The notes beneath the pieces are model-generated. The model made no database searches and was not told the DNA's origin. It saw only the letters and a program-made list of their open reading frames with translations. The position numbers and the translations under genes were made by a program. DNA of 64,000 bases, from NCBI GenBank assembly GCA_032161105.1, contig JAVHTD010000014.1; one strand, 5' to 3'. Source of the DNA: Candidatus Thermosaccharophagus tengchongensis. Lineage in GTDB: Bacteria > Armatimonadota > Fervidibacteria > Fervidibacterales > Thermosaccharophagaceae. This document shows, in pieces, positions 18,001-57,792 of the stretch (the stretch's first letter is position 1; each line of letters begins with the position of its first letter).

Positions 18001-21000
18001 TGAATGATTCCACAGTTGATGTCAAAATCACTGGCAGCAACTTTATACCGACTGATTCAGCCAAACTTGTGCCGTTAAGCATATCCGGGAGCGACACGGA
18101 AATTCGTGCAACGAATGTCACAGTGAGCGATTCAAGGACAATTTATTGCCGCTTTAACCTGGTGAAGCGTTGTCCCGGTGACTGGAAAGTCGTGGTATTC
18201 GGTCTAAGAAATGGCAATCAGGTTGAGAGCACCGAGGATGTCAGGTTCACAGTGATCGCAAAACCCGCAATCAGCAGTGTAACGCCGGATAATGCGTTGA
18301 ATACCGATCCTGTGAGTGTGACGATCAAAGGCTACGACTTTATGCCGGGTGCAAGGGTGAGACTCAGGGATGGCGGGAATGTGATTGATGGCACCATTAA
18401 TTCGGTCAAAAGAGACGAGATTGTGTGCGAATTTGACATAGGAAACAGGCGGCCGGCAAAGATGGATGTTGAGGTTGAAAATACACCAACTCAGGTTGCC
18501 TCCCTCAAAGAGGCGTTCACAATACAGGCAAAGGCATCCGTCAGCAAGGTTGAGCCAGATGAAGCGGATAATAGGCAGGCAAGCTTGAAGGTGACAGTTG
18601 TCGGGGACAACATTTGGAATGGTGCAACTTGCAAGCTAAAGAGGGCAGGCTTTAGCGATATACTTCCGATTGCTCAACCGCAAGTTGAGGAGCGGTTTAT
18701 TGGCGGCGAGAATAAGAACAGTGAGCTTGTGTGCCAGTTTGATTTGAGAGGCAGAGCACCTGGCACATGGCAGCTTGTTGTTATAAACCCATACAACAGC
18801 CCAGAGAGTGACCCAGTTGACTTCAAAATCAACGGGGTGTATAGCCCGGACTACCCAGAGGTTGCGGGTATTGACCCGAAAGTTGGCGCAAATACTGGCA
18901 ATTTGGACGCCACAATTACGGGTCGCTTCCTGTATGAGGGCGCAACCGTGAAGTTGGTGAAAGATGGTAACGAAATTGTGGCGCAAAATGTTAAATGGAT
19001 GCAGGATGGGACAAAACTTACATGCACTTTGCCGTTGCTCGGGAAAGAACCCGGAAGATATGACCTCGTCGTGATAAATACCGACGGTAAAAGTGTGACA
19101 GTTTCCAAGGCATTCACGGTTATTGCTCCGGCGACCATTACCTCCGTTTCTCCAACTACAGCCAGTAACGCAAGCGATTCCTTCACGCTGACAATCGTGG
19201 GTAGCAACTTCTGGGATGGCATAAAAGTTAGCCTGCGCCGTGCCGGCTATGGTGACATAGTTGCAACAGGTGTCAAGGTTGTCAGTAGGACGCAGCTCAC
19301 CTGCACATTCAACTTGAAGGATGTTGACAATAACCCGGCAAATGGTGATCAATCTGCAGCGCCCGGCAAGTGGTCAGTTGTTGTCCAGAATGTGCCTAAT
19401 GATGAGCCGCCAATGAGCCCAGAGGCAATTAGGTCAGATGCTCTCACAATTACCGCTGCCCAACCGACTCTGACGAGTATCAACCCGAATGAAGGGGATA
19501 GGGATTCAACAGTTACGGTGACGATAACTGGAAATAACCTGTTTGCCGGTGCCTCGGTGGCTCTCAGGAAAGCTGGTCAAACACCAATCATAGCTGGCAA
19601 TGTGCAAGTTATCAGTAATACTGAGATTCGGAGCACATTTGACCTAACTGGAGCAGCACTTGGATGGTGGACTGTTGTTGTGACTAATGTTGATGGTCAG
19701 TCCGCAATGCTTGCTGATGCGTTCCTCGTAAAGGGTAAAGCACCAAGGATTGACAAAGTTAACCCGAATCAAGCCTTAATAGGTTCAGTCATCGGTGTCA
19801 CCGTTGAGGGCGAGAACTTCTATCCGGGAATTTCCGTTGAAATGCGCAAAGGAAATGAGAGAATAGTCGGCACAAACATAACGCTCTTGAGCGATAAGCA
19901 AGTTTGGGCAAGGATTGACCTGAGGAATGTAAGCGATGGCGATTGGGATGTCGTTGTTACGAATGCTGATGGACAGAGAGCAACACTAAGTGGCGGGTTC
20001 AAAGTGTTTGAGGTGCCCAATGTCAAACCGGTTGTAAGCGTCATCTCGCCAAATGTGGGCAATAATGACCAAGTTGTTACAGTGACGGTAACTGGATCCA
20101 ATTTCTACCCGAATGCGACAGTGAAACTTGTTAAGTCTGGGCAGTCTGACATAGTTGGAACCATCCTCAGCATGACCGATAAGGATGGGGATATTGGGAA
20201 TGGGAATGAGGAGTTGCGATGCACATTTGACCTCAAAGGTAAGGCACCCGGAAACTGGGATTTGGTTGTGATCAACGCCAATGGTTTGCAAAATGATAAC
20301 ACCGCAAACGACGACTTCACCATAAAGGCACTTGCAGTAATAACCGGAGTTACGCCGTCATCTGCACAGAATACGGCAAAAGTGAGCGTGACAATTACTG
20401 GGGCTAATTTCTGGGCAGGTGCAACTGTTAAGTTGCGCTACTCAGTGGGCAATGAGATTGTGGGTGAGAATGTTACAATTGCCGATAGAACTCGCATAGT
20501 GTGCACATTTGACATCCGTGGCAAACTTCCGGGTGCATGGGATGTGGTCGTTCAAAATGAGCGCAGTGATGAGGCTGTAAGGCAAAAGGCATTCACAGTG
20601 ACCGCAAATTCACCAGTAGTTTCATCCATATCACCGAGTGAAGGGACGAATGACAAGGTTGTGCAAATCACGATTGACGGCAATTACTTCTACAACCCGA
20701 CGGTCAAGCTCACTCAGGCAGGTCAAGCGGACATCATTGCAACTGGTATTGTTGTGCAAGATAAAAATAGTGACATGCATGGTGATAGGATTGTTTGTAA
20801 TGTCAATCTCACAAATGCTGCGATTGGGCGATGGAATGTTGTCATCACCAACTGCGATGGTAAGTCAATAACACTCTCAAATGCCTTCATGGTTAAATCC
20901 AAATATCCGCCGACTGTGACTTCCATCTCGCCGAGTAGTGTGACCAACTATGGGTCGGTTAATGTGACAATTACAGGTGGTAACTTCTTCAGTGGGGCTG

Positions 21001-31284: not shown

Positions 31285-32397
31285 ATGCGTAAGCCCTTGG
31301 TGATGAAGATGGGTGAATGCGCTCACTGCAAAAAGCGCTCACGCACAATATCGTCCTCTCTATCCCTTTGCGCTGACTGCATCAAGGAGCACTATGACGA
31401 GGTCAAGCCGTTAATTGAACAAGCGCACGCATCGGCAAGAAAGCCATTCTCTCTTCCGCAGGCACCACCAAAGACAAGCGAGGGGAGGTTATGCAACATA
31501 TGCCACAATGAGTGCATCCTGAGGGGCAACGAACTGGGTTACTGTGGATTGAGCTTTGGCGGGAGGAGACTTGCGAGTGTGTCATGGTATGATGACCCGC
31601 TCCCGACAAATTGCGTTGCGACTTGGGTTTGCCCAGCGGGCACAGGTGTTGGCTACCCAGATTTCGCATACAGGGACGGTCCTGAGTATGGCTATTTCAA
31701 CCTTGCCGTGTTCTATCATGCGTGCACATTTGATTGCCTCTTCTGCCAGAACTGGCATTTTAAGCGCATGACGCATACATCGCGCCCTGTCTCGCCAGAG
31801 GAGCTTGCCTCGCAAGTCCACAAGCGCATTGCATGCATATGCTACTTCGGCGGTGACCCAACACCGTTCCTTCCACATGCGCTTAATGCTTCAAGGGTCG
31901 CCCTTAAGAATAAGCCAAACAGGATTTTGCGAATCTGTTGGGAGACGAATGGGAGTGCTCATCCGAAGTTGATGCGCCAAATGGTTGAGTTGTCGCTTGA
32001 CTCGGGCGGATGCGTGAAGTTTGACCTTAAGGCATGGGATGAGAAGCTGCACATTGCGCTATGCGGCGTGAGCAACAGGCGCACGCTTGAAAACTTTGCC
32101 ATGGTGGCGACTGAATATCTGCCAAAGCGGCATGAGCCGCCATTGCTCATAGCGAGCACATTGCTCGTGCCCGGATATGTGGATGAGGATCAAGTTGCGC
32201 AGATAGCCAAGTTCATAGCCAGCCTCAACCCAGACATACCATATAGCCTGCTCGCCTTCGCGCCGCAATTTTACATGAGTGACTTACCGACCACATCACG
32301 AACGCACGCCATGCGCTGCCTTGAAGCTGCAAAGGCAGCTGGGTTAACAAGGGTTCACATCGGCAATGTGCACCTTTTGGGGAGCGCCTATCATTAG
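31285..32397 (+). CDS. Radical SAM protein, PFL-activating-enzyme-like, with N-terminal Cys-rich zinc motifs
   Basis: CTFDCLFCQNW (CxxxCxxC), FGGDP, WETNG, KFDLKAWD, and N-terminal CAHC/CADC/CNICHNEC. Confidence 0.88.
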   Translation: MRKPLVMKMGECAHCKKRSRTISSSLSLCADCIKEHYDEVKPLIEQAHASARKPFSLPQAPPKTSEGRLCNICHNECILRGNELGYCGLSFGGRRLASVSWYDDPLPTNCVATWVCPAGTGVGYPDFAYRDGPEYGYFNLAVFYHACTFDCLFCQNWHFKRMTHTSRPVSPEELASQVHKRIACICYFGGDPTPFLPHALNASRVALKNKPNRILRICWETNGSAHPKLMRQMVELSLDSGGCVKFDLKAWDEKLHIALCGVSNRRTLENFAMVATEYLPKRHEPPLLIASTLLVPGYVDEDQVAQIAKFIASLNPDIPYSLLAFAPQFYMSDLPTTSRTHAMRCLEAAKAAGLTRVHIGNVHLLGSAYH

Positions 32398-32484
32398 CGG
32401 TCATGTGGTCATTGCATGGACATAAAGCCACCTCACTGCTCCATAGGAAGGTGACACTTCATATGTCGCTTCGTTAGCCACGCT

Positions 32485-35073
32485 TTATCGCGCCTTTTTC
32501 ATTGCCGCTTCAAGCTGCTCAAGAGTTTCAAGCACTTCCCTGTGGCGTTCCTCATACACCTTTGGGTCCTCAGCAAACTGATTTGGCGCTTTGATTATGT
32601 CGCTTGCGTCAATCAGGCGGCGCGCCTTAACAACGACCGATTGAAGCTTGCTCAGAAGCTTTGCATCGGATGCAACCTGCTTAAGCTTCCCATTGAGCAT
32701 GCATAGCAGGTCGTAATCCTCAATTCCATCCCTGAACAGCTCCGCGCGAATTGACGGAAGTGGGTCGCCGAGCTTCTTGTCCGGGTAGAAGAGGAAACCA
32801 TCGCCATTGCCTCCGGGGTATCCAGTGGCGTCCTCAAACAGGTCAAGTGGCTTACCCTTGGCATCCGTCCAGTAGTTGACACTCCAATAGAGGAAGCCAT
32901 CGCAATTGTAACGCCAAAGCCACCACCCAATTGCACGGTGCGAGACGCCGGTCCAATCAATCCGCCATATGTCTGGGTATGTGGAGCCGCATGTGCTGAT
33001 GCAAACATACATCCACACTTGCTCCCCTTTTGCTTTGCGCTCGTTGAGGAAGGGCTCATCAAAGCAATCAATGTGTGGAACCCAAATCCCGATGCTGCCG
33101 GCGAGCTTGCGATATGCGGCTCCATCGGGAGTTGGCTTGTGCGTCCTAAATGAGCCGGTTGCGCCATAGCCGGCGGTCAGCAGGATGAGCAAGTTAGGCG
33201 CATGCTCGTGAACGAACTTACATAGCTCGTTGATTTCGTCAAACGCTTTTTCCGACGGCTCGTCAAACACATAGAAGTAAAACCTGTCACTCCAACCGCG
33301 CTCCTTCAAATGCTCGCCGAGCAAGCGCAGCTTCGCTGCAACATCCTTTTGCTCCTCCTTCGGTGGTGGCTTTGTGCCCCAGCGCAGTATGCCCCATATG
33401 GAGAATGCCGTTGCACCTCTTTCCATCCACTTGATCACTTCCCTGTCAAACTCATCCCATTTGGCTTCCCAAGACCCATCGGGACGCTTTGCAAATACCT
33501 TATCCCATGGCAGCGGTGGTGGTGGCGTGAACCTGTATCGCATGCAAGTCTCATAAAAGCGCATTCGGCGCTCATCCGTCCATGCATCGCCATAAACTTG
33601 CTTGGCTTTGTGATCCCATATGAGCACGCAGCTGCGAAGGAAACTATGCTTTGGCAGGGCGACATCGTAAATGCGAGCCTTGATTGGCACGACTTGCTTT
33701 GTTGCGTTCCCGGGAAGGATGACCACCTCGCCAGAATACTCGCCGGCTATCGCGTCCTCGGGAACCCGAAGCGTAATCCAGACCGATTGCACATTGCCCT
33801 TCTTCACATCAAATGGTTGCATCGGCAAGAGCGCGTCCGGATATCTCCCCGGCACGCGGAAGCCATATGGCGTTGGCTTTTGCACTCCGACATATCCGAC
33901 AAGGCGCGCATCTGCAAAGAGCGCCCTGCCACTGGGACCAATTAACGGGCTGACATTGATGCGCACATTCTCAAGTTCCGCCTTCAACGGGGCAATGACA
34001 ATTTGAGCCGACTCAGCTTCGCCACGAGCGGCATGAATGATGATTTCCTTGCGCGGTTCCAATTGCGGCAGTTGGTCCTGACGCAACTTCAGCATCGGTG
34101 ATGGCACAAATATCGCATATGGCGCTCCTGAAGTCTCCATCAACTTCACCATGCTCACCTGCTCCTTAATGCGGTCCAAGTTGTGCTTCACTTCCAATGT
34201 GGATTGCCATTTGGATTCCGTTGTGCCGCTACTAAGCTTGCGCTCCCAATCCCTCAATGTCGCCTGCAACTTCCTTCCGTCTTCAGTTTTGCACTCTCTG
34301 GGCAGTTGCGAGAGTGTGTTTCGGACACGCATGAGCATCTCCTTGGCTTTCGTGCGCACGACACTTTGTGTTATGCTCACGGCAATGCCGAGCTTTGAGA
34401 TGCCCTCAAACTTTACCTCGCCAAATCTTTCAGGTTCGTGGAAGCCCTTAATGCACTCAGACCATGTTGTTAACTCTGGCGGAGTGACCGCATACCGCTC
34501 CCTTGCGAAGTTGATTCGCCATGTGTCGCTCAGCATCGGCAGAAGATTAAGCGATGACAGAGGTAGCTTTAACTCAACGCACCATGAGTCTGCGCTCTCT
34601 TTAGCTCCGACGATGACCTTGCTATCCCAGCGAACATCACTTGCTCCATCGCTCCAAAATTCATCACGCACAGTCCCAATGCTGTTGACGACGATGTGGT
34701 AGTAGCTGGTTGGATCTTCTGGGCATGGTGCAATGAAAACTTCAACGCAATCATCCCGCCATACTTCACCATCCTTTTCTTTGATGTTGTGGTGCAGCTG
34801 CGCCATCTGCGGTTCGTCGCACAGGAAGCCAAAGTAAATGGCATCGGATGTGAAGAGGACTCTCACGCTTGCCCTCGCGCTTGCCTTAGTCCCTTTTAAC
34901 GGTTGCGCTATTGCGAACTCAAAAGCTCCCTTCCACACATCCTCGCTAAGTGAGCCATCAATCTTTGGCATGCCCTTCACTTGCTTTATCACTGTGCCCT
35001 GTGTGATGACGACCTGCGCCAGAAGGAAAGCGCTTATTACCACGATGCACATCGTGAGCACTTTTGACCTCAT
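32485..35073 (-). CDS. Secreted CBM9-like + DUF4091 (GH123-like) glycoside hydrolase candidate
   Basis: Signal peptide and CBM9-like 'PKIDGSLSE..W..DGEVWRDDCVEVFI..W.VELKLP..WRINFAR'. Catalytic-type YVFDEP, WMYVC, GFLYW, GDGFLFYP and SIRAELFRDGIEDYD. Confidence 0.8.
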   Translation of the reverse strand: MRSKVLTMCIVVISAFLLAQVVITQGTVIKQVKGMPKIDGSLSEDVWKGAFEFAIAQPLKGTKASARASVRVLFTSDAIYFGFLCDEPQMAQLHHNIKEKDGEVWRDDCVEVFIAPCPEDPTSYYHIVVNSIGTVRDEFWSDGASDVRWDSKVIVGAKESADSWCVELKLPLSSLNLLPMLSDTWRINFARERYAVTPPELTTWSECIKGFHEPERFGEVKFEGISKLGIAVSITQSVVRTKAKEMLMRVRNTLSQLPRECKTEDGRKLQATLRDWERKLSSGTTESKWQSTLEVKHNLDRIKEQVSMVKLMETSGAPYAIFVPSPMLKLRQDQLPQLEPRKEIIIHAARGEAESAQIVIAPLKAELENVRINVSPLIGPSGRALFADARLVGYVGVQKPTPYGFRVPGRYPDALLPMQPFDVKKGNVQSVWITLRVPEDAIAGEYSGEVVILPGNATKQVVPIKARIYDVALPKHSFLRSCVLIWDHKAKQVYGDAWTDERRMRFYETCMRYRFTPPPPLPWDKVFAKRPDGSWEAKWDEFDREVIKWMERGATAFSIWGILRWGTKPPPKEEQKDVAAKLRLLGEHLKERGWSDRFYFYVFDEPSEKAFDEINELCKFVHEHAPNLLILLTAGYGATGSFRTHKPTPDGAAYRKLAGSIGIWVPHIDCFDEPFLNERKAKGEQVWMYVCISTCGSTYPDIWRIDWTGVSHRAIGWWLWRYNCDGFLYWSVNYWTDAKGKPLDLFEDATGYPGGNGDGFLFYPDKKLGDPLPSIRAELFRDGIEDYDLLCMLNGKLKQVASDAKLLSKLQSVVVKARRLIDASDIIKAPNQFAEDPKVYEERHREVLETLEQLEAAMKKAR

Positions 35074-35180
35074 AGCCCACCACCACGCGGAGTTGTAGTT
35101 GATTTGATGCCGAGCCCGATTTCATTTTATCGCCATGTGTGTTTGAGCGCAAAGTTGAAGCGCAGGGAGGACAGAAGGAG

Positions 35181-35387
35181 ATGGAGTGGCGAAGGAGGGA
35201 GCCATCACAACTCTTTTTGCCCGACCATCCCCAGCCTGTATCACACTGGCTTGAATTGGCGAAGGAGGAAGCTGTCAACCCGCAGGGCGGTGAGGTAAAC
35301 TTAGAGAAAGCGAGAAGAATCATAGAATGCAAGGCAGTAGACACTGCCAGAGGTGTGGATGAAGATGCAAATCTTGCACTTCGCTGA
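35181..35387 (+). CDS. Possible small hypothetical protein (68 aa) overlapping the sbcD start
   Basis: GGGAGG RBS about 10 nt before ATG 35181, protein-like composition, and a stop overlapping the sbcD 5' end. Confidence 0.35.
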   Translation: MEWRRREPSQLFLPDHPQPVSHWLELAKEEAVNPQGGEVNLEKARRIIECKAVDTARGVDEDANLALR

Positions 35388-36615: not shown

Positions 36616-36764
36616 GGATGGTTTTGCCATGAGCAGCTCTATCCAAAGATGGTTTTTGGTTTCCAAGGGCTCAACAAATGCCGTGTAAAAGGTTTAACCA
36701 TCTGCTGATACGGGCTTTAGCTCCAAACCAATCGCCCCTCCACTCTCAAGCATAGTTGTGGAGG

Positions 36765-37835
36765 ATGAACAGCATGGCGACCATGACGCCAAGGAGAAGG
36801 GTAGAAGCTGTGCTACGCGGTGAGAAACCAGACAAAATACCGTTCACCGTCTATGAGAACAAGCTCCCGCAATGCACCGTAGAGCGGCAATTGCGCAATG
36901 ATGGGCTGTGCATTGTGGAGCGTCGCTACTCCGTCTTTCGCATCCACACCCCAAATGTTCGTGTTGAAACCATCTCATACACCGAGAATGGGATCCCATA
37001 CATTCGCAGGAACTACTACACACCAGTTGGCAACTTGTATGCTATTGATCGTCCCGCTGGCTTCACCACATGGAATTTGGTCAAGCTCTTCAAAAGCCCC
37101 GAGGATTACAAGCCGTTACTTTTCATGATCAAGGATCAGCAGATTGAGCCAACTTATGAGCCCTTTATGCGTGCTCAGGAGATGCTCGGAGAGGATGTAA
37201 CACTTCGGGTCAACATAGGTTCCACTCCGCTGCATCAGATCATGGTGCACTGGATGGGTTTGGAGACATTTGCAGTAGAATGGATTGAGCGGCGTGATGA
37301 GATTGAAAGGCTCTATAAAGCCATTGTAGAGAAACACCGCCAAATATACGAAATCGTTGCAAAATCTCCGGCACTGCATGTTAACTACGGTGGTAACGAA
37401 ACTGGTGATGTAATGGGCAGGGAGCGCTTTGAGAAGTATGTCCTTCCACTTTACAACGAGGCTGCTGAAGTGCTCCACAAACACGGTAAACTTTTGGGTG
37501 CTCACCTTGACGGGAATAATCGTGTTTGGGCTGATTTGGTGGCGCAATCTGGTCTTGACTACATTGAGGCATTCACTCCGGCTCCAGACACGGATATGAC
37601 TATTGAAGAAGCCTTTCAAATTTGGTCGGGAAAGGTCCTATGGATCAATTTCCCATCGTCGGTTCACCTGCGCCCTGTGGAAGAGATTAAAGCCACCACA
37701 CAGCGCATTATTGAGGCTTCAAAGCCTGACTATCGCTTGATTATTGGCATAACTGAGGATGTGCCAGAAGACCGTTGGCAGCAGAATTTCCTCGCCATTT
37801 CCGAAACAATTAATGCTGTGGGGAGGTTGAGATAG
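36765..37835 (+). CDS. Uroporphyrinogen decarboxylase-superfamily (URO-D/MtaA-like TIM barrel) protein
   Basis: MTPRRRVEAVLRGEKPDKIPF, TPVG.L, FEKYVLPLY...LH..GK....HLDG, IEAFTP.P..D, LWINFPS. Confidence 0.8.
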   Translation: MNSMATMTPRRRVEAVLRGEKPDKIPFTVYENKLPQCTVERQLRNDGLCIVERRYSVFRIHTPNVRVETISYTENGIPYIRRNYYTPVGNLYAIDRPAGFTTWNLVKLFKSPEDYKPLLFMIKDQQIEPTYEPFMRAQEMLGEDVTLRVNIGSTPLHQIMVHWMGLETFAVEWIERRDEIERLYKAIVEKHRQIYEIVAKSPALHVNYGGNETGDVMGRERFEKYVLPLYNEAAEVLHKHGKLLGAHLDGNNRVWADLVAQSGLDYIEAFTPAPDTDMTIEEAFQIWSGKVLWINFPSSVHLRPVEEIKATTQRIIEASKPDYRLIIGITEDVPEDRWQQNFLAISETINAVGRLR

Positions 37836-41024: not shown

Positions 41025-41062
41025 ATGGCAGTCAGTCATATCGCGCCTATATGGGTCACACA

Positions 41063-41285
41063 ATGGGACTTACCCATTTGTGATGAGTTCATAGAAAGGC
41101 TGAGCCAGATAGGTTCGGATGGCACCATGAGGGTATCGGGGCTTTCTGGTTGGCATTGAGCCGCCTCGGTGAGGGTGAAGGTCTTCTGGGGCGACGATGA
41201 GGAAGTAGATGTAGTCAAGGTCATGGCACTTGGCTGGGTTCATCGGCAATCGCCCCTCTTGGCAGGGCGGTTCTTTGCATGCTAT
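41063..41285 (-). mobile_element. Internally deleted IS701-family-like transposase remnant (MITE-like)
   Basis: The minus strand from ATG 41243 reads MNPAKCHDLDYIYFLIVA, then after a frameshift QKTFTLTEAAQCQPE, and ends AIRTYLAQPFYELITNG* at 41070. These resemble, from memory, the extreme N- and C-termini of IS701-family transposases with the DDE core missing. Confidence 0.6.
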
Positions 41286-41414
41286 CGTTATAGCAAATTT
41301 GTTGAAGGGTGAGGCTCACGCCGAGCCGTGGAAAAGGGGATGATGAGGGGGGTGGTGGGCGGGTTGTTCAATGGTGCTTGCGATTGCTAAAATGCTCACA
41401 AGGAGGGGATAGGG

Positions 41415-43580
41415 ATGTTTTGTAGTCGTTGTTTCGTCCATGTTGTGGCAGGTCTTGGGGGCGCCTTGCGGCGCAAGTTTGCGGCGTGCATTGGAGTGTT
41501 GGTTGTATGTCTTTCATTGTTGGCTCTTGAAATCTCATGCCACAAACTTCCCCGGAAACGCCCCGTGCTCGTCTCCAAAACAGGGCGCACCGAGGAACGC
41601 CCTGTGCTCGTCCCCAAAACGGGGCACATCGGTCCAGTGAATAGCGTATCCTTCAGTCCAGACGGAAGGACGATAGCTTTGGGAAGCGGTGACGGAATGG
41701 TCATCCTTTGGGATACTGAAACGGGCGAGGTGAGGCGAATGTTGGAGGGACACACCGATCCTGTGTATAGCGTATCCTTCAGTCCAGACGGAAGGACGAT
41801 AGCTTCGGGAAGCTTTGACAAAACGGTCATTCTTTGGGATGCAGAAACTGGTAAGATGAGGCGGAAGTTGAAGGGGCACACTGGTTCTGTGTTGAGCGTA
41901 TCCTTCAGTCCGGATGGAAGGACGATAGCTTCGGGAAGCCGTGACGGAACGGTCATTCTTTGGGATGCAGAAACTGGTAAGATGAGGCGGAAGTTGAAGG
42001 GGCACATCTGGCCGGTGAGGAGTCCGGTGAGGAGTGTAGCCTTTAGTCCAGATGGGAGGACGATAGCTTCGGGACACGGCAAAACGGTCATTCTTTGGGA
42101 TGCAGAAACTGGTGAGGTGAGGCGGAAGTTGAAGGGACACACCGGTTGGGTGGAAAGCGTATCCTTTAGTCCGGATGGAAGGACGATAGCTTCGGGAAGC
42201 CGTGACGAAACGGTCATCCTTTGGGATGCTGAAACGGGTAAGATGAGGCGGAAGTTGGAGGGACACACCGATTGGGTGAATAGCGTATCCTTCAGTCCGG
42301 ACGGAAGGACGATAGCTTCGGGAAGCGGTGACACCACGGTCATTCTTTGGGATGCAGAAACTGGCAAGGTGAAGTGGGAGTTAGAGGGACACATTGATTT
42401 TGTGGAAAGCGTATCCTTCAGTCCAGATGGAAGGACGATAGCGTCGGGAGGCGATGACAGCACGGTCATCCTTTGGGATGCAGAAACAGGTGAGGTGAGG
42501 CGGAAGTTGAAGGGACACACCTGGGCGGTGGAAAGCGTATCCTTCAGTCCGGATGGAAGGACGATAGCTTCGGGAAGCCGTGACGAAACGGTCATCCTTT
42601 GGGATGCTGAAACGGGTAAGATGAGGCGGAAGTTGGAGGGGCACACCGATTGGGTGAGTAGCGTATCCTTTAGTCCGGATGGAAGGACGATAGCTTCGGG
42701 AAGCGGTGACGGAACGGTCATTCTTTGGGATGCAGAAACTGGTGAGATGAGGCGGGAGTTGGTGGGACACACCGATCCTGTGTTTAGCGTGTCCTTCAGT
42801 CCAGATGGAAGGATGATAGCTTCGGGAAGCTATGACAAAACGGTCATCCTTTGGGATGCAGAAACTGGTGAGATGAGGCGGGAGTTGAAGGGGCACACCA
42901 GTGAAGTGAATAGCGTATCCTTCAGTCCGGACGGAAGGACGATAGCTTCGGGAAGCGGTGACGGAACGGTCATTCTTTGGGATGCAGAAACTGGTGAGAT
43001 GAGGCGGAAGTTGGAGGGGCACACCTGGGGGGTGAGGAGCGTATCCTTCAGTCCAGACGGAAGGACAATAGCTTCGGGAAGCGGTGACGGAACGGTCATT
43101 CTTTGGGATGCAGAAACAGGCAAGATGAAGCGGAAGTTGGAGGAGCGCACCGTTTCTGTGGAAAGCGTATCCTTCAGTCCAGACGGAAGGACAATAGCTT
43201 CGGGAAGCGGTGACGGAACGGTCATTCTTTGGGATGCAGAAACAGGCAAGATGAGGCGGGTGTTGGAGGGGCACACCCGTTCTGTGAGGAGCGTATCCTT
43301 CAGTCCAAATGGAAGGACGATAGCTTCGGGAGGCTATGACGACACAGTTCGCCTGTGGGATGTGGCTACTGGCAGGGAAATTGCCACCTTCATCAGCTTT
43401 GATTCAGGTCAAGATTGGCTTGTTATCACTCCAGAAGGCTACTACAATGCCTCTCCAAATGGCGACAGGTTCGTTCGGTGGCTTGTAGGCAACAAACTCT
43501 ATCCAGCGGAGAAATTTTCCGATCAGTTCAAGCGTCCAGACATTGTTGCGAAGGCGCTTAGGGGCGAGAAAATTCCGTAG
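41415..43580 (+). CDS. Secreted/membrane-anchored WD40 protein with 14 highly conserved repeats (two predicted 7-bladed propellers)
   Basis: RBS AGGAGG and a hydrophobic N-terminal segment ending LEISC. 14 x 'GH(T)xxVxSVSFSPDGRTIASGSxDxTVILWDAETG.MRR.L.', then C-terminal WLVITPEGYYNAS..RPDIV. Confidence 0.95.
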   Translation: MFCSRCFVHVVAGLGGALRRKFAACIGVLVVCLSLLALEISCHKLPRKRPVLVSKTGRTEERPVLVPKTGHIGPVNSVSFSPDGRTIALGSGDGMVILWDTETGEVRRMLEGHTDPVYSVSFSPDGRTIASGSFDKTVILWDAETGKMRRKLKGHTGSVLSVSFSPDGRTIASGSRDGTVILWDAETGKMRRKLKGHIWPVRSPVRSVAFSPDGRTIASGHGKTVILWDAETGEVRRKLKGHTGWVESVSFSPDGRTIASGSRDETVILWDAETGKMRRKLEGHTDWVNSVSFSPDGRTIASGSGDTTVILWDAETGKVKWELEGHIDFVESVSFSPDGRTIASGGDDSTVILWDAETGEVRRKLKGHTWAVESVSFSPDGRTIASGSRDETVILWDAETGKMRRKLEGHTDWVSSVSFSPDGRTIASGSGDGTVILWDAETGEMRRELVGHTDPVFSVSFSPDGRMIASGSYDKTVILWDAETGEMRRELKGHTSEVNSVSFSPDGRTIASGSGDGTVILWDAETGEMRRKLEGHTWGVRSVSFSPDGRTIASGSGDGTVILWDAETGKMKRKLEERTVSVESVSFSPDGRTIASGSGDGTVILWDAETGKMRRVLEGHTRSVRSVSFSPNGRTIASGGYDDTVRLWDVATGREIATFISFDSGQDWLVITPEGYYNASPNGDRFVRWLVGNKLYPAEKFSDQFKRPDIVAKALRGEKIP
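41622..43394 (+). repeat. Tandem array of 14 x 126-nt near-identical repeats
   Basis: Units start at 41622, 41748, 41874, 42000 (135 nt), 42135, 42261, 42387, 42513, 42639, 42765, 42891, 43017, 43143 and 43269. Confidence 0.95.
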
Positions 43581-43720
43581 GATTTTCCTTTCATGCCATA
43601 AAGCGGACACTGTCAATCGTGCCCATTGAGGTTGAATGTGTGGTGTTTGGTTCAAAATCAAAGTGATGCTTTGAACCTGCACTGAGTGGCTGTCTTGAGT
43701 GGTGAAATTGTGAGAGTCTC

Positions 43721-43841
43721 GTAGGGGCGCATGAAATGCGCCCGAAATGCGCATGAAATGCGCCCGAAATGCGCCCGAAAAAACGGGCGGGTTTCACCCG
43801 CCCCTACAGGATGGGTTTTTTGCGGCTAAAGCCGCTCCTAC
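43721..43841. repeat. GTAG-family REP cluster (REPIN/BIME-like) between convergent genes
   Basis: GTAGGGGCGCATGAAATGCGCCC (+), five 11-nt GCGC(AT/CC)GAAA(T) units, GTAGGGGCGGGTGAAACCCGCCC (-) and GTAGGAGCGGCTTTAGCCGC (-). Confidence 0.8.
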
Positions 43842-51186: not shown

Positions 51187-52425
51187 TCAGCTTTCCAATC
51201 CCCGCAGGGCTTCCTCAAATGCCTTTAGCCTCGGCTGTATGCGTATGGGTTCTCTAAGTGATTCGCTCACCACCTCAGATGTCTTTATCCCAGCGCCAGT
51301 CACGAGAGCTACTGTCAGATCGTCTCGCTTGACGATGCCTTGCTGGACGAGCTTCCTCAAGGCAGCAATAGTGACACCGCCGGCTGTCTCAGCCCATACC
51401 CCTTCAGTCTCCGCCAATAGCTTTATCGCCTCAACGACCTCCTCATCAGTGACCTCTTCAGCCACGCCGCCGCTCTCTCTGATAGCGCGCAATGCATAAA
51501 CTCCATCCGCCGGATTGCCTATGGCGAGCGACTTAACTATTGTGTTTGGCTTGACCGGCTTTGGCATGCTCGCACCCGATTTAAAGGCATTCACAACCGG
51601 AGCGCATCCCGATGGCTGTGCTGCGTGCACCTTTGTCGGCACGGAATTAATCAGACCGATACGATGGCACTCCTTTATCCCCTTCCAGACTTTCACGAGA
51701 AGCGAACCTGAGGCGACCGGAGCGACGATATGGTCTGGGGCTTTCCAACCGAGTTGCTCAAGCACTTCAAGAACTATCGTCTTGCTGCCCTCGCTGTAGT
51801 ATGGGCGTATGTTGATGTTCACGAATGCCCACCTGAACTTTGATGCGACTTCAACGCAAAGCCTGTTCACATCGTCATAGTTACCCTCAACTGCAACGAG
51901 CTGCGGACCGTAAACAAGCGAGCCAACCACCTTGTTCAGCTCAATGTCGGCTGGCACGAACACGAAGCAGCGCATGCCAACTTTCGCAGCGTGAGCGGCG
52001 AGAGCGTTCGCCAGGTTGCCGGTTGATGCGCACGCAACTGTGTCAAATCCGAATTCCCTCGCCTTCGTCACAGCAACTGATACAACCCTATCCTTGAATG
52101 ACCATGTCGGGTTGACGGTATCGTTCTTGATGTATAGGTTGCGCAATCCAAGCCTCTCTCCCAGCCTGCGCGCTTTTATCAACGGCGTGAATCCGCCCCC
52201 CAAATCAACGCATTCATGTGGCGGTGAATCAACGGGCAACAGTTCGTAGTAGCGCCACAGGCTCGCTGGACCTTTTGCAATCTTCTCCGGGGTGACAACC
52301 TCTGAGAGGGCATCGTAGTCGTATTCCACTTCAAGAGGTCCAAAGCAATATTCGCAAACATGGAGCGGCTCAATCGGGTATTCGCTGCCGCATTCACGGC
52401 ACCTGAGTGACTTGATGCGCTTCAT
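51187..52425 (-). CDS. thrC: Threonine synthase (PLP, fold type II; N-terminal Zn ribbon)
   Basis: CRECG..CEYCFGPL, NPTWSFKDR, CASTGNLA, EGSKT, SLAIGNPADG, TG.G.K. RBS GAGGGAG before ATG 52425. Confidence 0.9.
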   Translation of the reverse strand: MKRIKSLRCRECGSEYPIEPLHVCEYCFGPLEVEYDYDALSEVVTPEKIAKGPASLWRYYELLPVDSPPHECVDLGGGFTPLIKARRLGERLGLRNLYIKNDTVNPTWSFKDRVVSVAVTKAREFGFDTVACASTGNLANALAAHAAKVGMRCFVFVPADIELNKVVGSLVYGPQLVAVEGNYDDVNRLCVEVASKFRWAFVNINIRPYYSEGSKTIVLEVLEQLGWKAPDHIVAPVASGSLLVKVWKGIKECHRIGLINSVPTKVHAAQPSGCAPVVNAFKSGASMPKPVKPNTIVKSLAIGNPADGVYALRAIRESGGVAEEVTDEEVVEAIKLLAETEGVWAETAGGVTIAALRKLVQQGIVKRDDLTVALVTGAGIKTSEVVSESLREPIRIQPRLKAFEEALRGLES

Positions 52426-52679
52426 CTGGCATCTCTCCCTCAGGTTTATGTTGCTTAATCCGATGCCACTGACGCCGTTAAGGGCGCGCAATCTCGTTCT
52501 AACTCCGTTAACGGGAACGACGCCAACGCTATGCGCCTGCAAAGCAGTGATGAACATTTACAGTCTCGCCGCGAGTTCGGTTATGTGATATTGTAACTGA
52601 CCTTACACCTTTGTGCCATGCAGTTTCATTCAAGCGCATTAGCGGGGCAAGCCCAATGGCACAGCCACTTTGCCCGTGA

Positions 52680-53501
52680 TTACATGGGCGCTTTCATCCC
52701 ATACCCGTTGAGCGAATGCTTGCATTGGCAATCGCTGCTTTCGTATCGCTCAATTGCTGCAGCAACTACGGGAAAAAGCCTATCGGCGGCTTGCTTCATC
52801 ACTTCCACAACTTCAGAGTGCGATGGATGGGCATCCAAAACGCCGGCGGCGTAATTCGTAACTACACAAACAAGCGCATAACATGTTTCAGCCTCCCTTG
52901 CGAGTGTTGCCTCAGTGGCTGCAGTCATGCCGACGACATCGCCGCCGAGGATCCTCATGGCTTTCACTTCCGCCGCTGTCTCGTATCTCGGTCCGTCGGT
53001 GCAAAAGTAGCAACCGCCATCTCTCACGCTGATGCCGACACACTTGGCTGCGTTAATGATCAGCTTGCGCAAGCGTTCGCAGTATGGCTGTGTCATGTCC
53101 ACATGGACAGCTGCGGCACATTCGTCAAAGAATGTGAACGGACGCTGCCTCGTCCAATCAACGAATTGGTCCGGGATGACGATCTCGCCGATGCCCAATC
53201 CGTCATGTAATGCCCCAACTGCAGCAGTGGCAATGATGCCATCCACTTGAAGGAGCCTCATTGCAGCTATGTTTGCCCTGTAGTTGATCAGGTGTGGCGG
53301 CAGGCGGTGTCCAAAACCATGCCGTGGCAGGATGAAAATTTCAACCTCGTCACCGCTGCGTGGGCGCCGATACTGCGCCCGCAGTAGCTTGACATCGCCA
53401 TAGCGAGTGCCCATCGCCACCTCTTTCACTTCACACAATGCGTTCCGAAATTGCCATGGGAGTTCATCAACGCCAGTGCCTGTGATTATGCCTATGCGCA
53501 A
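52680..53501 (-). CDS. mtnP: S-methyl-5'-thioadenosine/purine nucleoside phosphorylase (MTAP family)
   Basis: IGIITGTG, LPRHG..H.LPPH.INYRANI, PDQFVDWT, GPRYETAAE, GGDVVGMT..TEA.LAREA, VTNYAAG. Probable TTG start at 53501. Confidence 0.88.
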   Translation of the reverse strand: MRIGIITGTGVDELPWQFRNALCEVKEVAMGTRYGDVKLLRAQYRRPRSGDEVEIFILPRHGFGHRLPPHLINYRANIAAMRLLQVDGIIATAAVGALHDGLGIGEIVIPDQFVDWTRQRPFTFFDECAAAVHVDMTQPYCERLRKLIINAAKCVGISVRDGGCYFCTDGPRYETAAEVKAMRILGGDVVGMTAATEATLAREAETCYALVCVVTNYAAGVLDAHPSHSEVVEVMKQAADRLFPVVAAAIERYESSDCQCKHSLNGYGMKAPM

Positions 53502-53518
53502 CGGTGAGCCACCATAGC

Positions 53519-54298
53519 TCAAAAGTCCCACCCCTGCATTGCGCACAACCACAACCTGTGCGCCATTTCGTTATACGCGAACTCCATGAGCGGTTTCAGG
53601 TTGACCGTGTCGGCTTTGTTGTATTTGATGAGCAAAGCCAAGGCATCCTCATCGCCATAACGCTCATACTCGTTCCATAGCCTCACGGCATCCCACCCGC
53701 ACAACCCTTCAATCTCTTGCTCCCTCACTATGCCAAGTTGCCTCTCAACCGCCTTCAAGCCACCTTTGTATCCGAGCCGCCTCATCAAGTAACACAGGTC
53801 AATGTGGATTGGCGGTATGTGTATGTTCGGAAAACGCCTCCTCAGGAATGGAATGTCAAATCGTGAGCCATAAAATGTCACTACGATTGCTTTGCCGTGG
53901 AGTTCCCCAACCATGTCCGACATGTTATAGCCTCGGATGAAGGCTTTGTAGCGGCGTCCGTCGTATATTCCGACAACGGTGACATGGTCATCCTTCCCCA
54001 TGCCCGTTGTCTCAATGTCAAGGAAGATGGTGCTGTCTCGAAAATCTTGATAACAGCGCCAGTATTGCTCCCTCGGGAGCTTGTCCGCAAAGAAGTCGGC
54101 ATCTCTTTCTGCGAGCGCTGTTATTGAGCCCTTAATCAACCTCTTCCAATCATCCGGCACATGCTGCAATTTCCCGCGTTTACACTCCTGTAACCACTTC
54201 TCCCATGAGGTGATGCCCATTCTCCACCAAGCTCTCTCCCTCTTCTCTCCCACGCCGGGTAAGTGGATGAATGTGGCTGTGAGTAGCTTTTTAAACAT
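53519..54298 (-). CDS. RNase H-like (YprB/RNase_H_2) 3'-5' exonuclease-domain protein
   Basis: TFIHLPGVGEK.E..WW, FLDIETTG, VTFYG.RFD.PFL, HIDL, GGLK.VE..LGI.R, YNKADTVNL. Confidence 0.85.
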   Translation of the reverse strand: MFKKLLTATFIHLPGVGEKRERAWWRMGITSWEKWLQECKRGKLQHVPDDWKRLIKGSITALAERDADFFADKLPREQYWRCYQDFRDSTIFLDIETTGMGKDDHVTVVGIYDGRRYKAFIRGYNMSDMVGELHGKAIVVTFYGSRFDIPFLRRRFPNIHIPPIHIDLCYLMRRLGYKGGLKAVERQLGIVREQEIEGLCGWDAVRLWNEYERYGDEDALALLIKYNKADTVNLKPLMEFAYNEMAHRLWLCAMQGWDF

Positions 54299-56448: not shown

Positions 56449-57792
56449 TCATGCGTTCCACAACTCCTGCCAGATGGGCAACAGCGAATCAAATGTCAGT
56501 TGGAAGTAGCCGGCGAACTCGGGTTGGTATGTTAGCCAGAGCCCAGCTACAACATCATCGCTGAGGCGCATGTTTTCAATTGGCACAATAATGCTGTTGG
56601 GTTCGCTGAAGCGGAAGTGCTGTGGGGCATCTGCCAGTTCAATGGCTATTGAGCCCCTGTATGGGCGCTTGTCGGGGTTGCTCAGGTGCATGTGCATTCG
56701 GACAAGTTCCCTATCGCCGCCATACTTAGCCACCTCTGCCTCAATCAACTCCGCACTAAAGCGAGGATGCTTGAACACGAATGGAAGCATGTATTCAATC
56801 CTGATGAGCATTGTGTTGCTCACTCTCGCCTGCCATACTTCAAGGAATTCCCCTGCATGCGCAAATATGAATTTGAGCGCCACATCAAGCTCCTCATGCG
56901 TGTATCGGCGCAATTCAAGCATTGGCAATTCCGTCCAATCAATGGCGCTTATATCCTCCTCAGCGAGGAAAACGGCGCTCGGCTCACTGAATGCCGCCGG
57001 CTCATGAAAGCATCTCAGGAACCTATCCCAAATGCCGCCACGCAGTTCATGCGCTATTGTTATGAGCAGGTCAAATGCCCCGACATCAAATCCAAGCCAT
57101 CCAACGACATACTCGCTTTCAAGCATCACCTTGATGAAGTTTGGTATGTGCCAAGCGCTCGGCAAACGCAATGGCAGCTTGTCGGGCATTTGAGCTATAC
57201 CGCGCTTCGGGAGTTCAAGCAAACCGTGTGTTATCAGGATGGCTTGGATGAATGGGTTTGTGTAATCGCAGTTGCTCCCCTTCACAATCGCATTTGTTGT
57301 TTGCCTCAGGCGTTCCCTGACCTCGTTCTCATCAATGACATCCAATTTTATGCCGTGCTCGCCCTTCAATATCTCACAGACACTCGGCAGGACAAGCTCA
57401 AGTTTCTCCGGAGGCGCACCAAAGTGCCAAACCTCAAACCTCTGCATGCGCAGGGAGTTTGACCACTTTCGCTTGAGCGTCACATATCGCTGGACAAGCT
57501 TCCTGCGCATGGTCGTGTGTTTCATCTCCCTTGGATAGTGAGAGAACTTTTCGGATAGGTCTACAAACACGATCAGCTCATCGTTGCGGCACCCAATTAG
57601 GTCAACATCAAAATCCCGCCCATCAAAGGCGTTCACTTGGTATAGCACCTTATCGCACCCGACTATGCATGTGAGATAGGCAGCAGTCGCGTGTTGCTTC
57701 ATTTCGTAATAGCGCACCGCAACTTCACCAACCCTATAGCGAGTTTTGTATTGCCCGCCACAGTGAGCTGAGGTTTGGCACGCCGTAGCCAT
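56449..57792 (-). CDS. Hypothetical protein with an N-terminal PD-(D/E)xK-like nuclease fold (possibly degenerate) and an unknown C-terminal region
   Basis: AYL..IVGCD.V.Y.V...DFDVDLIG....IVFVDLSEK..., F..W...P, NPFIQAILI. Start may be 57702. Confidence 0.55.
   Translation of the reverse strand: MATACQTSAHCGGQYKTRYRVGEVAVRYYEMKQHATAAYLTCIVGCDKVLYQVNAFDGRDFDVDLIGCRNDELIVFVDLSEKFSHYPREMKHTTMRRKLVQRYVTLKRKWSNSLRMQRFEVWHFGAPPEKLELVLPSVCEILKGEHGIKLDVIDENEVRERLRQTTNAIVKGSNCDYTNPFIQAILITHGLLELPKRGIAQMPDKLPLRLPSAWHIPNFIKVMLESEYVVGWLGFDVGAFDLLITIAHELRGGIWDRFLRCFHEPAAFSEPSAVFLAEEDISAIDWTELPMLELRRYTHEELDVALKFIFAHAGEFLEVWQARVSNTMLIRIEYMLPFVFKHPRFSAELIEAEVAKYGGDRELVRMHMHLSNPDKRPYRGSIAIELADAPQHFRFSEPNSIIVPIENMRLSDDVVAGLWLTYQPEFAGYFQLTFDSLLPIWQELWNA

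Follow-up and report, generated by a model that had tools for sequence, protein, structure and literature searches.

What a bacterium gains from a long array of almost uniform propeller blades in which the same few codons change from blade to blade, and on which side of the membrane such a protein acts, are questions raised by a gene at positions 41415-43580 of a 64,000-nucleotide (nt) stretch of DNA (the window) from Candidatus Thermosaccharophagus tengchongensis (assembly GCA_032161105.1, contig JAVHTD010000014.1). The gene encodes a 721-residue WD40 protein in a genome (G000) of 2.74 Mb, assembled in 44 contigs and 97.4% complete. The analysis described here suggests that the protein is probably a selected, blade-exchanging binder of 14 blades that lacks an effector and presents a distinct binding surface in each allele.

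Variable Codons on a Uniform Propeller Scaffold

An initial annotation of the window had described 14 WD40 repeats of 126 nt, and this array is borne out by repeat detection, codon register, and domain searches alike. Tandem Repeats Finder reports a single array (41621-43331, period 126, 13.5 copies, 84% matches), and the Pfam WD40 family (PF00400) matches 14 stretches of the protein at a score of 570.5 bits (cut-off, 27; E 5.3e-178). The AlphaFold2 model, calculated from an alignment of 66 sequences, has a mean predicted local distance difference test (pLDDT) score of 91.7 and a predicted template modelling (pTM) score of 0.79. In it, each unit has four strands, a helix spans amino acids (aa) 18-40, and the tail forms a small alpha/beta domain. 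Among solved structures, the best match is 2YMU, a highly repetitive propeller from Nostoc (sequence E 9.3e-176; fold E 4.5e-66, 50% identity), and further double seven-bladed propellers rank after it in the fold search. The absence of a NACHT domain also held, with the leader, WD40 units, and tail accounting for the whole protein: 66 aa precede the array, a 64-aa tail comes after it, and together the three parts fill all 721 aa. The Pfam families matching the full protein are exclusively of propeller or WD40 type among the 25 listed, and searches with the tail alone and the leader alone matched no Pfam family.

Five codons of each unit are hypervariable (7, 8, 10, 26, and 28; 70 residues over the 14 units). 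The residue sets that the initial annotation had listed around a conserved valine (x-x-V-x) and on either side of the aspartate were every one recovered exactly from the sequence. Among the 14 units, each of the five codons carries 6-7 residues with an entropy of 2.2-2.6 bits, while the scaffold codons mostly carry 1-2 residues (about 0-0.4 bits for most) and codons 1, 3, and 39-42 are intermediate (0.7-1.75 bits). The earlier description of the repeats as near-identical is correct for the similar scaffold and overstated in degree, since the DNA of two units is on average 83% identical when all codons are counted and 88% when only scaffold codons are; at the latter, internal units 2-13 are 86-99% identical and units 1 and 14 just 69-85% identical to the rest. 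The pattern extends to 96 internal units from 10 genes, in which the same five codons carry 9-15 residues (2.2-3.2 bits) and 20 of the 37 other codons are invariant. These 96 units comprise 51 types of triplet signature, 40 types of pair signature, and 89 distinct five-residue sets, and the association between the two variable clusters (mutual information 3.53, versus 3.49 +/- 0.04 after shuffling) is reached by 409 of 2000 shuffles. The array was also considered as a target of a diversity-generating retroelement, which would involve a reverse transcriptase, a template repeat, and adenine-specific changes; this was rejected, as the reverse transcriptase family PF00078 has 0 matches in the genome and the variable codons change at every base and in all 14 units.

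The model places codons 7 and 8 in the d-a loop, ahead of strand a, and codon 10 within that strand as its second residue; the turn between strands b and c contains the aspartate, with codons 26 and 28 on either side of it. The available text of Wu et al. (2012; PMC3419727) derives top-face hotspots from the fingerprint (V/L/I)-R1-R2-(V/L/I) together with the tetrad aspartate. Applied to V9-x10-S11-V12 and D27, this rule makes codon 8 R1-2, codon 10 R1, and codon 26 D-1, with codons 7 and 28 as neighbours of canonical hotspots; hardly any variation is seen in the loops on the other face (codons 15-19 and 35-38). Were the five most variable of the 42 codons placed at random, all three canonical hotspots would be among them with a probability of 741/850668 = 8.7e-4 by simple arithmetic.

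Selection at the Variable Codons

The initial annotation had proposed a per-codon comparison of nonsynonymous and synonymous change as a check on its reading, and this comparison reveals an excess of variation at the five codons. The ratio of proportional nonsynonymous to synonymous differences (pN/pS) at these codons is 1.64 in the gene at 41415-43580 and 2.49 in a paralogue described below, compared with 0.34-0.35 for the scaffold. Over the 14 units, pN at the individual variable codons is 0.54-0.70; pooled, the five have a pN of 0.599 and a pS of 0.365, and the scaffold a pN of 0.082 and a pS of 0.244. In the 96 internal units from 10 genes, nucleotide diversity at codon positions one and two reaches 0.515 for the five codons and 0.022 for the scaffold, with 0.150 at 17 fourfold scaffold sites, so that the five codons exceed the fourfold sites 3.4-fold (Mann-Whitney p = 9e-5). 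When only the 281 unit pairs separated by 3 or fewer scaffold differences are considered, the per-site difference at the five codons is 16.6 times that of the scaffold. Because relaxed constraint cannot surpass the neutral rate, either change at the five codons is driven or homogenisation there is selected against; either way, their diversity appears to be kept by selection.

These measurements bear on the possibility that the protein is a nascent propeller without a recognition role, produced by the young amplification of one blade, an event that recurs constantly in prokaryotes, in which the top-face positions are merely the least constrained. In the text available, Hu et al. (2017; PMC5587647) count 305 highly repetitive WD40 proteins, which they interpret as products of young duplication, and the accessible portion of PMC9218822 portrays propellers of this sort as continually amplified and often decaying; the clade studied here has also lost its effector domain. 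Nevertheless, diversity at the first and second bases of the variable codons is 3.4 times that of fourfold sites, these codons differ at 16.6 times the scaffold rate in the closest unit pairs, neither genomic copy has lost its open frame of exactly 14 units, and the scaffold is constrained to the degree that its pN/pS indicates. A propeller without a recognition role is considered unlikely.

Exchange of Units between Gene Copies

A search for paralogues sharing the same DNA repeat, also suggested in the initial annotation, found one such copy, on contig 19 of the genome (cassette at about 51421-53802), again with exactly 14 units and with the same leader and tail. The duplicated segment, which includes the ribosome-binding site and the 3' untranslated region (UTR), is 84.2% identical between the two loci over 2468 nt (blastn), with no similarity found by blastn past the cassette ends. 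The scaffold identity of internal units is 0.880 within the gene at 41415-43580, 0.872 within the paralogue, and 0.877 between them, and the closest pairs (A, this gene; B, the paralogue) occur both within and across the copies (A5-A8, 99%; A8-B8, 98%; A3-B6, 97%; A9-B13, 97%). The internal units of the two copies have no positional correspondence and form no diagonal; only the end units are orthologous (A14-B14, 95%; A1-B1, 85%). A homogenised interior with orthologous ends appears to be the classic footprint of unequal crossing-over and gene conversion that spare the array edges. The earlier proposal of a homogenised scaffold with diversified top-face codons is supported, with units exchanged within and between paralogues.

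Alleles with Unrelated Arrays

A scan of metagenome contigs with the tail sequence recovered 232 relatives. In nine of the loci (L029-L036 and L039), six of which derive from a single metagenome, tail identity is 91-98%; after these, the best locus drops to 61%. All nine close loci lack a caspase domain (see below), and the eight that contain array units have the same kind of unit. The open frames among these metagenomic relatives contain 13, 14, 13, 15, 13, and 14 units (counts from short-read contigs), a further frame has at least 9 units and is ended by the contig end, and L029 has 4. The most informative locus is L032, whose 5' flank (373 nt) is 98.9% identical to 41037-41409 and whose tail and 3' UTR are 96.5% identical, while its array comprises 13 units that form no diagonal and share no signature in order with the gene at 41415-43580. 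L032 is an allele of the same locus, with a near-identical flank and a wholly different array. The initial annotation had named invariance of the array among strains as a finding that would speak against it; the array proved not to be invariant, all of the signatures in the L032 allele being different.

The remaining close relatives are distributed over several sites and forms. L034, which is cut within its last unit, matches the paralogue locus (97.3% over 3.7 kb), and L035 is joined to sequence that is found on contig 21 of the genome, where no cassette lies. In L033, a metagenomic allele of the paralogue locus, the stretch 2699-2950 is 98.8% identical to contig 19 at 56859-57110, so that the sequence following the cassette resumes 3 kb further on in the genome; L033 skips a P-type ATPase gene present there in both the genome and L034, and is either a deletion variant or a chimeric contig. 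L029 combines its 4 units with a remnant of the leader.

The array, or its variability, could alternatively result from short-read mis-assembly of several strains. The public runs in which the sequence was found are present as short contigs, in which depth is not readable as copy number, and no contig in any of the four runs reaches from one end of the array to the other. Three runs from other studies, all hot-spring metagenomes, yield 388-689 short pieces that are 90-100% alike, and L033 holds an exact tandem duplicate of one unit. On the other side, the variable clusters of one unit are only 48 nt apart and fit inside a single read, which makes the unit-level diversity safe. The run X1 covers 58% of sampled words and contains exact pieces at 41381-41796, 42732-42861, and 43099-43733 (two bins at 41988-42159 are without cover, which proves nothing), and the same family of units occurs in independent assemblies of three metagenomes and four runs of four studies. 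An assembly artefact is accordingly a highly improbable source of the array or its variation.

A Clade without the Caspase of its Family

A search with the full-length protein returned 7921 generic WD40 matches ranked by repeat count (best identity 66%) and was uninformative on orthologues; the tail was therefore used as the query. In this search, 144 proteins reached E<=1e-3 (identity of the 120 listed, 38-58%), from Smithella, Syntrophaceae, Nitrospirota, Thermodesulfovibrionales, Treponema, and others. Their length is about 900-1250 aa in nearly all cases, and many are named 'caspase family protein'. In nearly all of those listed, the tail comes after the propellers and is followed by 300-440 residues with the caspase His and Cys, whereas three (P0179, P0199, and P0137) end no more than 48 residues past the tail. 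The consensus of the family alignment consists of a signal peptide, a 'PEIFVQLGH' cap, 14 WD40 units, the tail, a linker, and a caspase domain in which His and Cys are nearly invariant, and the tail residues that are invariant in the alignment are present in the protein from 41415-43580. Based on this shared architecture, the protein can be assigned to a widespread family composed of signal peptide, 14 WD40 units, tail, and caspase (Peptidase_C14).

The protein and its paralogue end directly after the tail, without a protease. In the genome, the caspase family PF00656 has 0 matches, as do CHAT (PF12770) and DUF4384 (PF14326). The best relative among 40 related genomes belongs to the same phylum and is a full-length protein of 1139 aa with a signal-like leader, 14 WD40 units, tail, and caspase, and its blades are divergent. 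The same separation is seen in the internal identity of the units, which by a regex-based measure is 0.72 in the present protein and has a median of 0.38 and a maximum of 0.68 in 86 tail-bearing members; among the generic top matches, 12 of 115 reach 0.7 by this measure, mostly cyanobacterial STAND proteins. Taken together, these comparisons indicate that a tight, lineage-specific clade has lost the caspase.

The cassette is inserted between sbcC and leuC, whose ends are about 25-30 nt apart in the congeners G001 and G002, and the tail was not found in 3/3 same-genus genomes. In the third congener, G003, this junction (L026, G003:C82, 590-5496) holds 4.9 kb with four open reading frames (ORFs; 531, 214, 167, and 118 aa) that have no Pfam match. 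Since the junction is empty in two congeners and contains other cargo in the third, the cassette is a recent insertion at a variable junction that acts as a hot spot for variable cargo. Such a history could also be read as that of a decaying remnant, i.e., a truncated, horizontally acquired piece of a WD40-caspase gene drifting to loss. The missing tail and empty sites in congeners, the disappearance of the caspase, and the WD40 decay evident here in the 4-unit contig and in a degraded kinase-WD40 gene (see below) are consistent with this, but one genome and three metagenomes together contain ten open frames of 13-15 units without internal stops, conservation extends to the promoter-like site, the ribosome-binding site, and the 3' UTR, and the scaffold is under strong purifying constraint. 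Decay is therefore a very unlikely account of the gene.

Leader and Cellular Location

The initial annotation had placed the protein outside the cytoplasm, a claim that stands in part. The leader begins with basic residues (RRK) ahead of a 17-residue hydrophobic stretch corresponding to the helix in the AlphaFold2 model, and signal-peptide-like N-termini are found, by a crude rule, in 92 of the 110 family members starting with M, as well as in the copy at 41415-43580. Canonical cleavage-type sites (SLA|EE and ALA|EE) occur at the corresponding place in the paralogue and L035, and the leader DNA of the two genomic copies is 89% identical over 172 nt. Conversely, in the copy at 41415-43580 the hydrophobic stretch is followed by five basic residues and no clean cleavage site, and four of the nine close relatives (L030, L031, L036, and L039) are leaderless, starting at the propeller cap with a GGAGG ribosome-binding site of their own behind the same promoter-like region. 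In these leaderless alleles, six codons stand in place of the whole leader. The leader is probably an export signal or a signal anchor, and export of the copy at 41415-43580 is plausible; the clade as a whole would not be uniformly extracytoplasmic and appears to include both exported-type and cytoplasmic-type forms. The lipoprotein cysteine that had been thought possible was not upheld. Lipoboxes are of the L-[AS]-[GA]-C type, and the triplets before the cysteines of the leader are FAA, VVV-type, and EIS; none before a cysteine after the hydrophobic stretch is lipobox-like.

The leaderless relatives and the basic residues on both sides of the hydrophobic stretch are also what would be expected of a cytoplasmic sensor whose leader is not a working export signal and which reports to an unlinked effector in the manner of WRAP-type STAND propellers; in addition, the nearest solved and the most repetitive relatives are cytoplasmic STAND-linked propellers. 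This explanation conflicts with the mostly signal-peptide-like parent family, with the cleavage-type sites in the paralogue and L035, and with the similarity of the leader DNA between the copies, and neither the genome nor the surroundings of the gene yielded an NTPase, caspase, CHAT, or DUF4384 partner. We consider a cytoplasmic sensor quite unlikely for the copy at 41415-43580.

Proposed Function and Points against It

The reading favoured here, an effector-less binder with exchangeable blades, would work as follows. The scaffold would be kept uniform, and the units shuffled, by unequal crossing-over and gene conversion acting both inside arrays and among dispersed copies, while diversifying selection would keep the 70 top-face residues different, giving each allele a different binding surface. 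The leader would carry the propellers across the cytoplasmic membrane in the copy at 41415-43580 and in the paralogue. Without an effector of its own, the protein would act by binding alone (e.g., blocking, trapping, or adhesion) or pass its signal to an unlinked partner, and the likely ligands would be variable non-self molecules such as phage or competitor proteins.

Several observations weigh against this reading, beyond the trailing basic residues, the leaderless relatives, the mixed location of the clade, and the lack of a spanning contig already described. The residues at the variable sites are dominated by G/D, S/W/L/P, and N/Y/E, a restricted alphabet that fits a shuffled pool of unit types better than free randomisation. 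Gene conversion lowers the synonymous diversity of the scaffold, which is the yardstick used above, so that part of the excess at the five codons may come from selection against homogenisation rather than from faster change; the selection measures themselves (pN/pS and site diversity) are tree-free. The placement of the variable codons on one face is derived from the secondary structure of the model and a published hotspot rule. The order and number of units rest on short-read assemblies, so that the counts of 13, 14, and 15 and the 4-unit contig could be assembly products, and no RNA run was among the public runs that contain the stretch.

A broader picture, which we regard as rather doubtful, is that the clade constitutes a population-level, free-standing repertoire of variable binders, freed from both the NTPase switch and the protease. 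Dispersed cassettes would swap blades to form new faces, much as silent cassettes do in antigenic variation, and gain or loss of the leader would place the same library in the envelope or in the cytoplasm, resulting in an antibody-like layer that operates by binding alone.

Gene Features and Genomic Neighbourhood

The features of the gene and its cassette are collected in Table 1. The promoter-like site should be viewed in light of the consensus scan that found it, in which 2 sites were seen versus 1.5 expected; a related TTGACA site occurs upstream of the metagenomic copies. The cap strand at the end of the linker fits the 'PEIFVQLGH' consensus of the tail-bearing family, and the 41-aa type of unit represented by unit 4 is found at other array positions in L031, L032, and L036.

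Table 1. Features of the WD40 gene and its duplicated cassette (window coordinates).
Feature	Position	Strand	Basis or remark
Duplicated cassette, ~2.46 kb (5' leader region, coding sequence, 3' UTR)	41343..43807	+	blastn
Promoter-like TTGGCA, 18 nt, TATCGT; TG before second hexamer	41259..41288	+	consensus scan only
Ribosome-binding site GGAGG, 8 nt ahead of ATG	41402..41406	+	from sequence; conserved in paralogue
Coding sequence, 721 aa plus stop	41415..43580	+	ORF list; Pfam WD40; AlphaFold2 model
N-terminal leader, aa 1-45: basic RRK, then 17-residue hydrophobic stretch	41415..41549	+	
Duplicated short linker (2x RPVLV.KTG), ending in N-terminal cap strand before first GH	41559..41621	+	
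14 WD40 units of 126 nt (42 aa), two 7-bladed propellers	41613..43385	+	codon register, AlphaFold2 model
Irregular unit 4: 4-codon duplication (PVRS) and 1-codon deletion before Asp turn	41991..42125	+	
C-terminal tail, aa 658-721 (64 aa), small alpha/beta domain	43386..43577	+	secondary structure from AlphaFold2
3' UTR common to both copies	43581..43807	.	11/22-nt palindromic tandem repeat 43727-43780
Terminator-like hairpin within 3' UTR	43785-43803	minus	

The tandem repeat in the 3' UTR is built from the palindrome GGGCGCAT-GAA-ATGCGCCC and is also present on contig 19 at about 53737-53790; there are 16 copies of the palindrome in the genome. In other hot-spring runs, the bin at 43727-43780 has very high summed depth with many contig breaks and joints. 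The palindrome looks like a dispersed element of the repetitive extragenic palindromic (REP) type and may mark points of recombination or assembly breakage.

A uroporphyrinogen-decarboxylase-like gene (36756-37835, + strand) lies between the SbcD-like and SbcC-like genes, which are adjacent in G001 and G002, and is a second insertion in the same neighbourhood. Another gene of this type, only 19% identical, is found just upstream of the paralogue. A functional tie between these genes and the WD40 copies was considered and rejected as coincidence, given their low identity and their position outside the duplication. The LeuC encoded next to the cassette is just 62-66% identical to its closest named proteins, which belong to several phyla. 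At the beginning of the window, two giant ORFs (3-11903 and 12036-22595, + strand; 3966 and 3519 aa) contain about 25 Big_1/Invasin_D3 Ig-like domains and TIG domains, respectively, and probably encode giant surface proteins. Elsewhere in the genome, contig 13 (about 31970-35379, - strand) carries a Ser/Thr-kinase-like gene with ordinary, non-repetitive WD40 units, broken into pieces that occupy separate short frames and between which lies a lipoprotein-like ORF; it has the appearance of a degraded kinase-WD40 gene.

Comparison with Known Systems

The protein resembles several known groups of repetitive propellers, each of which differs from it in important ways. The WRAP proteins, as described in the available text of PMC6805158 and PMC9218822, carry 14 near-identical blades on a STAND ATPase and belong to a branch that is tied to prokaryotic innate immunity and turns over rapidly. 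The likeness to WRAP and 2YMU consists of 14 WD40 blades arranged as two seven-bladed propellers. In WRAP, however, the propellers are the C-terminal sensor of a cytoplasmic STAND ATPase, while the present protein has no NTPase, an export-type leader, and a family-specific tail; likewise, WRAP blades reportedly differ by only 10 residues in 563, whereas 5 of 42 residues differ in nearly every blade here. The composition expected of a STAND sensor was not found, with just 66 residues before the array, WD40-type families only among the 25 Pfam families listed, and sbcC and leuC as neighbours.

The fungal HNWD proteins of Podospora anserina (HET-E, HET-D, and HET-R) undergo concerted evolution, vary in unit number, and have four selected surface residues per unit, according to the accessible parts of PMC1805685 and PMC2873952. 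Concerted evolution of units within and between paralogues is common to the HNWD/NWD family and the present genes, whose alleles may also vary in unit number (13, 14, 15, or 4 units in open frames that all come from short-read contigs), and the four residues on the interaction face under diversifying selection correspond to five here. The HNWD proteins differ in being cytoplasmic and in having a HET effector and a NACHT NTPase, both of which are absent here, and the repeat-induced point (RIP) mutagenesis of fungi does not apply. Their role, allorecognition with cell death, needs an effector, which the protein from 41415-43580 is without.

Prokaryotic caspase homologues with WD40 units are surveyed in PMC3501461, as far as its available text goes. 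The exported WD40-caspase family has in common with the present protein the cap motif, the signal-like N-termini, the number of WD40 units (14), and a tail of the same kind (38-58% identity among the 120 listed). It differs in possessing the approximately 400 C-terminal residues with a His/Cys caspase domain that are missing here, and its internal identity reaches at most 0.68 compared with 0.72.

The Highly-Repetitive WD40 class of Hu et al. (2017; PMC5587647) is characterised in the available text by internal aa identity >=0.7 and by a conserved scaffold with variable top-face hotspots (R1-2, R1, and D-1), both of which are likenesses. The corresponding identity here is 0.77 as the mean pairwise value over 42 positions and 0.72 by the regex-based measure, values obtained independently of the eight-contiguous-repeat rule of that paper. 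That work differs in being a general survey, in whose available text 'signal peptide' has 0 occurrences and no analysis of exchange between alleles or paralogues of an effector-less exported form appears. A literature search found no paper on an exported, hypervariable, effector-less bacterial WD40 form.

Near-identical blades with variable contacts have so far been tied to intracellular receptors of immune type, in which binding is converted into a response by an NTPase or by a death domain. In the present case, the same evolutionary engine would be at work on a protein that has lost its effector and, in some copies, has an export leader. If these proteins bind phage or competitor molecules unaided, the variable propeller would be a self-sufficient recognition module, and this would also give a purpose to the sensor part of the exported WD40-caspase proteins, a large and unstudied family. 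The compact, thermophilic family, with its full Asp-His-Ser-Trp network in the scaffold, would also be a natural starting point for engineered binders. Highly repetitive WD40 proteins, WRAP/2YMU, and fungal HNWD proteins are already known; what differs in the present system is the loss of the effector, a leader that is present or absent depending on the copy, the exchange of blades between dispersed cassettes, and a pair of alleles that combines near-identical flanks with unrelated arrays.

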